64,000 nucleotides of DNA. Source: Lama glama. Its lineage: Eukaryota. The stretch's first letter is position 1; each line of letters opens with the position of its first letter. The stretch is from positions 41,480,001-41,544,000 of the forward strand of contig CM052816.1 of the NCBI GenBank assembly GCA_028534125.1. Direction: 5' to 3'. Positions 11,653 to 12,529 of the stretch are shown one piece after another. Under the pieces are notes generated by a model that saw only the letters and a program-made list of their open reading frames with translations, made no database searches and was not told where the DNA came from. Position numbers and translations under genes: made by a program.

Positions 11653-11927
11653 ATCTAAGTCAAAAAATGGGAAGAAGATTATTGGACAGAAAAAGAGACA
11701 GATTGATTCATCTGAGGAGGAGGAGGAAGAGGATGAAGATTATGATAATGATAAAAGAAGTTCTCGTCGCCAAGCAACTGTCAATGTTAGCTATAAGGAA
11801 GATGAAGAAATGAAAACAGACTCTGATGATCTACTGGAAGTCTGTGGAGAAGATGTTCCTCAACCTGAGGAAGAGGAGTTTGAAACAATAGAACGATTTA
11901 TGGATTGTCGAATTGGAAGAAAAGGAG
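11653..11927 (+). CDS. CHD1: CHD1 exon (SKSKNGKK...[20 protein letters not shown]), start of chromodomain 1
   Basis: ccctag|A TCT AAG; GGA G|gtactc; 275 nt. Confidence 0.96.
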
Positions 11928-11937
11928 GTACTCTTTT

Positions 11938-12160
11938 GTTTATTTATTTATTTATTTTTAAACTTTTTTTTATTGAGTTATAGTCATTTTACAATATTGT
12001 GTCAAATTCCAGTGTAGAGCACAATTTTTCAGTTATACATGAACATACATACATTCATTGTCACATTCTCTTTTGCTGTGAGCCACCACAAGATCCTGTA
12101 TATATTTCCCTGTGCTACACAGTACAGTCTTGTTTATCTGTTCTACATTTTGAAATCCCA
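11938..12160 (-). mobile_element. Young 5'-truncated L1 3' end with 13-bp TSD overlapping the exon donor
   Basis: (TATT)n/poly-T tail; body nearly identical to 59294-59510; TSD gaggtactctttt at 11925-11937 and 12161-12173; TT/AAAA nick site on the minus strand. Confidence 0.9.
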
Positions 12161-12529
12161 GAGGTACTCTTTTAAAAAGCGTATTTAGTTTTTGGTTGTT
12201 TGAATAATATTTACTAGAGCAAATTATTTCTTGAATATTTTGAAAGCCTATAGGGTAGAATTCTTTTGTTTTACTTATTTGCTATAAAATATTCTTTGTT
12301 TGGCTTGAATATTTTCTTCCCAGTAAGTATCCATTTGATCTCACTTTATATATTGCAGATATTAGAAAAATTTTAACCTGTGCATTTGAGCTTTTCTGTT
12401 ACCATGCATAAATAAGTAATTGCTATTTAGGTATTTTCAATTTGATAAATGGTTTGATTTAAAACATTTTTTCTTTCATCTTAGATATATAGGTTATTTT
12501 TTGCTTATCTTGACATGCATTTTTTCCTT

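Follow-up and report, generated by a model that had tools for sequence, protein, structure and literature searches.

An antisense L1 insertion duplicated a CHD1 splice donor and is probably a tolerated scar with a silent second copy

In the 64-kb stretch of DNA analyzed here (the window), an L1 fragment has inserted in antisense orientation 10 nt into an intron of CHD1, and its 13-bp target-site duplication (TSD) has copied the splice donor of the preceding exon. This insertion is probably an ordinary L1 scar with a silent second donor. We place at about two in three (0.68) the probability that the second donor is almost unused, contributing less than roughly 1-2% of transcripts, and that the insertion persists as a tolerated scar. 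An earlier note on this DNA had proposed that the duplicate donor generates an NMD substrate through which CHD1 output could be tuned; such a switch, including the use of the second donor that it presupposes, is unsupported. The features on which the argument rests are collected in the table.

Table. Features at and around the insertion, in window coordinates
Feature	Position	Strand	Remark
CHD1 coding exon, 275 nt	11653..11927	+	phase 1 end, at start of chromodomain region
Left TSD copy with native donor GAG/GTACTC, GT at 11928	11925..11937	+	exact 13-mer
L1 3' UTR end, 5'-truncated, 223 bp, antisense to CHD1	11938..12160	-	89% to copy 59298-59669
L1 A-rich tail (decayed to AAAT units) and AATAAA	11938..11974	-	on the pre-mRNA, a U-rich tract right behind the native donor
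In-frame TAG on native donor read-through	11981..11983	+	sequence reading
Best acceptor look-alike inside the L1	11993..12012	+	top 0.7% of 2442 intronic AGs, gene-trained matrix
Right TSD copy with duplicate donor, GT at 12164	12161..12173	+	first base common to L1
L1 endonuclease site TTTT/AA	12170..12175	+	TSD edge; consensus per PMC3219598, Table 2 note
Original intron start, displaced by the insertion	12174..12353	+	read-through tails of other mammals align
Next CHD1 exon, chromodomain 1 core	13554..13779	+	human CHD1 match, exon model

The gene was identified as CHD1 by protein comparison, in which the end of the exon upstream of the insertion matches human CHD1 residues 254-288 (E 2.9e-17) and the exon after the intron matches residues 290-364. 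Mapping against a pig-family CHD1 protein of 1706 aa yields, with the donor at 11927 and the acceptor at 13554, a stop-free chain of 34 exons and 1696 codons, in which the exon ending at the insertion site is the longest among the 32 internal exons modeled. The closest named proteins come from hippopotamus and whale (98.5-98.8% identity), marking the gene as cetartiodactyl-like; camelids are absent from the named matches. A metagenome search for orthologous DNA retained one locus from 423 candidates, from a distant animal and, at 55% identity, uninformative for the empty site. Its CHD1/2-like exon (L001:1435-1580) is interrupted by an intron at the same phase-1 position, indicating that this intron position is ancient. 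An Rfam search of 11760-13600 returned no matches. Elsewhere in the gene, a CAG repeat run at 8252-8281 produces a glutamine tract in a CHD1 exon, and a 264-nt Lys/Glu-rich stretch at 37865-38128, of in-frame length and with AG and GT ends, is absent from the 1706-aa mapping reference and probably represents an alternative CHD1 exon of longer isoforms.

The anatomy of the insertion agrees with the account given in the earlier note. The TSD it proposed, GAGGTACTCTTTT, is exact at both positions, with different flanking bases on both sides, and a search of both strands of the 64-kb window finds these two copies only; the chance of a 13-mer match is 2.5e-8 per position and about 1e-5 over 400 possible boundary pairs. 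The intervening 223 nt read as the 5'-truncated, antisense 3' end of an L1, again as proposed, and the L1 endonuclease site named there is found at the TSD edge (minus strand: TT/AAAA). In the L1 family, as represented by the copy at 59298-59669, the sequence continues with the same base as G12161, which gives a 1-nt microhomology at the 5' junction of the insert. All of the features of target-primed reverse transcription (TPRT) that we looked for are present, namely a direct TSD within the usual span of about 7-20 bp, an A-rich tail with a polyadenylation signal, an endonuclease site, an L1 family and an empty site.

Assignment of the insert to L1 follows an indirect chain, which leads from the insert to the copy at 59298-59669 (175 matches and 15 mismatches in 190 columns), from this sister copy at 78% identity to 45642-45748, part of an older L1 at 45642-45866, and from the frame adjoining 45642-45748 to the C-terminus of human ORF2p (residues 1226-1262, E 1.4e-4). 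The sister copy's own 26-aa end has no match in PDB or Pfam. The sister element as a whole (59259-59687) is a 393-nt antisense L1 copy with a TSD matching at 17 of 18 positions; it extends into the end of ORF2 and lies beyond the CHD1 3' UTR. A SINE with a fixed 5' end was considered as the source of the insert and rejected, since the sister copy runs on past the same point. A further GC- and A-skewed block at 40040-42180, within a CHD1 intron, resembles what we take to be the 5' part (5' UTR and broken ORF1) of an older sense L1. A stretch similar to the one around the CHD1 insertion was sought in the other scanned genomes and found in none. If both copies share one source, a change of about 4% per copy dates the insertion to roughly 8 million years, as an order of magnitude only; the camel substitution rate used is the one quoted in PMC8605555, and its use presupposes the camelid assignment suggested by the repeat families.

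The outgroup check for an empty site, called for in the earlier note, was carried out at the protein level using open reading frames from other animals' unspliced contigs that run from the exon into the intron. Among 216 fetched proteins, from the best 120 of 516 and the best 120 of 325 matches, 20 display a mammal-type exon end without the spliced continuation. Seven of these 20 read-through tails are too short to test. Of the 13 testable tails, four align to the translation of the displaced intron start (p<0.02 versus 492 random windows) and none aligns to the L1 side. These results support both the empty site and the TSD reading, and they uphold the claim that the original intron sequence now follows the distal copy; the second copy therefore holds the original downstream context. 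Several tails begin with Phe or Leu followed by Lys, in line with a T-run/A-run present before the insertion. The insertion is absent from the other mammals sampled through these read-through proteins, and the duplicate donor is not conserved among them. Among the fetched proteins longer than 300 aa, 115 of 125 carry the spliced junction and 10 of 125 are without the search motif; neither a filled-site nor an exact empty-site read-through tail occurs among the 216 proteins fetched from the listed matches.

The same tails bear on the history of the donor. Seventeen of the 20 continue with Gly-Ile, which fixes the donor of these mammals as GT-A-T-(not G), so that the poor +4/+5 positions are ancestral and only the C at +4 is particular to the donor in the window. 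The description of the native donor as non-consensus at +4 to +6 accordingly stands as regards a weak site and is refined as regards its origin, the +4/+5 weakness being ancestral in mammals and not new.

A run search with 11860-12163 recovered all 31 sampled words in six genome-sized runs (5 samples, 2 studies), one of which may be the source of the window. The filled allele therefore recurs and is at least not private. Half or more of the 31 words are found in 20 of 24 rows. The 14 RNA or probable-RNA runs contain 0.58-0.77 of the words, which other L1 copies or pre-mRNA may supply, and these matches consequently constitute no evidence on donor use.

The creation of a second donor by the TSD is plain from the sequence: the 9-mers at the two GTs are identical, as the earlier note had stated, and the identity extends to an 11-mer. 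Given identical 9-mers, context would decide between the copies. By crude donor and acceptor matrices trained on 32-33 sites of CHD1 alone, the native donor is the fourth weakest of 33 CHD1 donors; two further very weak donors, at 9631 and 14061, have the lowest scores of the 33. The last 70 nt before the native donor score +0.40 for exon-likeness (10 of 33 exon ends are higher), with a purine fraction of 0.64 and six GAA triplets. The corresponding 70 nt before the second copy score -0.44, below all 33 real exon ends and at the 34th percentile of 537 intron windows, with a purine fraction of 0.37 and a single GAA. Predicted unpaired probability is 0.39-0.48 for the native donor versus 0.12-0.26 for the second copy.

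A downstream feature missing from the earlier note adds to this difference, in that the L1 tail places a U-rich tract behind the native copy. The tail raised the U fraction at +10 to +28 behind the first copy from 0.42 to 0.74, which ranks first among the 33 donors (median 0.42), and the second copy has 0.42. The tract at +10 to +28 is broken into 3-U runs, the longest run of 8 falling only within +7 to +56. At the sequence level the native donor has the arrangement described for TIA-enhanced donors, weakness of the site itself together with U-richness 10-28 nt downstream. The ATGTT motif, used for MATR3/PTBP1 in 10.1101/297853, has no copy in the insert.

Donor look-alikes scoring at least as high as the native weak site number 109 in 40,172 intronic nt and lie within 300 nt in 19 of 33 CHD1 introns. 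One of them (12320-12328, GT at 12323) outscores the native donor; it follows that donor by 395 nt and the second copy by 159 nt. That the second copy has stayed free of mutations may reflect youth or chance just as well as use. Every context measure favors the first copy, and look-alikes of equal score, apparently unused, are common; use of the second donor and tuning of CHD1 through it are unsupported.

The predicted consequences of such use were nevertheless worked out. The 236-nt extension and its in-frame TAG, as read by the earlier note, are confirmed in silico: read-through of the native donor would add 18 foreign residues before the stop, in an exon that would reach 511 nt at the second donor. 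This TAG lies 180 nt before the second-donor junction (12163), with 28 more junctions behind it. Under the NMD rule, a premature stop is one that lies more than 50-55 nt before a downstream junction, and transcripts using the second donor would by that rule be NMD substrates, as had been predicted. The earlier note missed a second route, in which the second donor could serve as the end of a poison cassette made of L1 sequence and opened by an acceptor before 12013; this putative 151-nt cassette (12013-12163) would follow an 85-nt intron, break the frame and carry a stop in frame. In-frame exonization was rejected: each of the 10 cassettes that start behind an AG and end at the second donor either shifts the frame or contains a stop, so that no new protein can arise. 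Acceptors immediately following the U tract, which would start exons at 11978 and 11984, were also set aside, having low scores and leaving introns of only 50-56 nt, as was a U12-type donor, on inspection against the consensus. The likely leak products, namely the 236-nt extension and the L1 cassette exons, all break the frame.

Taken together with published systems, these observations suggest the following course of events. The L1 endonuclease would have cut a T-run/A-run already lying behind a weak donor. The first donor copy would have retained its purine-rich exon end and acquired, at +11 to +47, a U-rich tract formed by the L1 tail. TIA1/TIAL1 would by analogy recruit U1 from this tract to the first copy; TIA binding 10-28 nt behind an upstream donor predicts use of that donor (PMC2964331), and a U tract of retroelement (Alu) origin lets an upstream weak donor beat even a stronger downstream one through TIA proteins (PMC2766253). 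By this analogy, the L1 U tract possibly rescues the native donor. The attraction of splicing repressors by antisense L1 sequence (10.1101/297853) is a further point in favor of a silent second copy. The second copy would be handicapped by the intron-like L1 sequence upstream of it, by the 511-nt exon it needs and by its predicted base pairing. Rare use of it would produce NMD substrates, invisible in protein.

The silent-copy reading depends on the donor being weak and context-dependent, and one published rule counts against it: when identical strong donors compete at a distance of more than 45 nt, almost all splicing goes to the downstream one (PMC3413131). Applied to CHD1, this rule would be ruinous, so that either the allele is costly or context overrides the rule. 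Nor need the insertion be harmless, given that young L1s in antisense orientation are scarce close to exons and are able to repress exons in their vicinity (10.1101/297853).

Two rival explanations invoke the second donor directly. It may leak measurably and without regulation, at a few percent, to give the 236-nt extension or the 151-nt cassette and, through NMD, a slightly lower CHD1 level. The 11-mer identical at both donors, the ancestral intron context kept by the downstream copy, the proximity rule for duplicated donors (PMC3413131), the rank of the acceptor before 12013 and the cryptic exons caused by L1 insertions near NF1 and CYBB exons (PMC3219598) all speak for such leakage, but the intron-like upstream sequence and the 511-nt exon speak against it, and the cassette route leaves an intron of 85 nt only. 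The lack of a read-through tail in 216 proteins is a weak further argument, NMD products being rarely assembled and camelids being absent from the named matches. On balance we consider measurable leakage unlikely. A regulated poison switch, in which a fall in TIA1/TIAL1 or in L1-binding repressors would move splicing to the second donor and bring CHD1 down via NMD, is very unlikely. Its geometry matches that of TIA-controlled alternative donors (PMC2964331, PMC2766253), both donor copies are intact, and the extension and all 10 AG-started cassettes break or stop the frame; however, it would be lineage-restricted, being absent from the mammalian read-throughs, and none of the papers listed by our literature search deals with a poison event here in CHD1.

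Two other rivals have only a slender chance of being correct. In the first, the second copy would permit recursive (ratchet) splicing: a first step, joining 11927 to the position behind the AG at 12162-12163, would remove the insert, and the restored donor would then splice to leave the mRNA unchanged. The TSD does hold AG/GT, removal of 11928-12163 would restore the exact empty-allele RNA, and the upstream pyrimidine fraction (0.69) is within the range of real acceptors. The acceptor would, however, be GAG instead of YAG, with a G at -3 that occurs in none of 33 real CHD1 acceptors; 19% of 2442 intronic AGs score as well, and a CAG just 2 nt upstream would be a competitor whose use shifts the frame. 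In the other, the main effect of the insertion would be weaker recognition of the exon, with the 275 nt of 11653-11927 skipped more often, at the cost of a frameshift, or the intron removed more slowly. The native donor is weak, antisense L1s repress nearby exons (10.1101/297853), and skipping ranks first among the effects of exonic L1/Alu insertions in NF1, at 6 of 13 (PMC3219598). Yet the NF1 insertions are mostly exonic, whereas the CHD1 insert is a short intronic one that supplies a U-rich tract, and its filled allele is present in 5 samples. We retain the tolerated scar as the preferred reading.

A broader proposal goes further, and we hold it to be quite doubtful. It states that antisense L1 insertions at donors are self-rescuing, that the leftover copy in CHD1 serves as a TIA-sensitive poison switch in this lineage, and that fixed donor-duplicating insertions are strongly antisense-biased genome-wide. 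The steps of self-rescue would be targeting by the endonuclease of T-runs behind weak donors, copying of the donor by the TSD and conversion of the tail into a TIA-binding U tract. At present the CHD1 insert amounts to a single L1 scar that can serve as a lineage marker and as a natural test of the choice between identical donors, for which the proximity rule points to the downstream copy and exon context with the U tract to the upstream copy. Regulated use of the second donor, were it to occur, would amount to an NMD dial of transposon origin acting on a central chromatin remodeler. If tail rescue held across genomes, it would explain the tolerance of some splice-site insertions and help to judge human Alu and L1 insertions near donors.

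Several known systems resemble the CHD1 arrangement in part. In introners and TSD-based intron gain, target duplication supplies a splice signal, and a TSD containing AG/GT lets the insert be excised tracelessly in principle. The CHD1 TSD likewise duplicates a target with a splice signal, but introners insert into exons and become new introns that splicing removes, whereas the CHD1 L1 sits in an intron that already existed, and the acceptor it would need is poor. Papers on introners and TSD-based intron gain include 10.1101/2022.06.06.494994, PMC11282704 and PMC3265369. A literature search of titles and abstract starts, with most subscription journals outside its scope, found no paper on a TSD-duplicated mammalian donor. 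The L1 insertions in NF1 (PMC3219598) share with the CHD1 insert a TSD in the 6-20 bp range, an A-rich tail, the endonuclease consensus and a position beside a splice site; they are, however, de novo disease alleles that cause skipping or activate cryptic sites, whereas the CHD1 insert is older and apparently tolerated, and in the available part of that source donor duplication is described for none of them. The system of Alu U tracts and TIA1/TIAR (PMC2766253, PMC2964331) likewise pits a weak upstream donor, followed by a U-rich tract of retroelement origin, against a downstream competitor. Its donors are cryptic sites within an Alu exon, whereas CHD1 has two copies of a constitutive host donor, a tract supplied by an L1 tail and a putative role of TIA. 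Finally, the duplicated 5' splice-site substrates of PMC3413131 also present two identical donors more than 45 nt apart to one acceptor. Unlike those substrates, which are engineered with strong sites and a neutral spacer and in which the downstream donor wins, CHD1 offers a weak site, an antisense L1 as spacer and an upstream donor that the gene needs.
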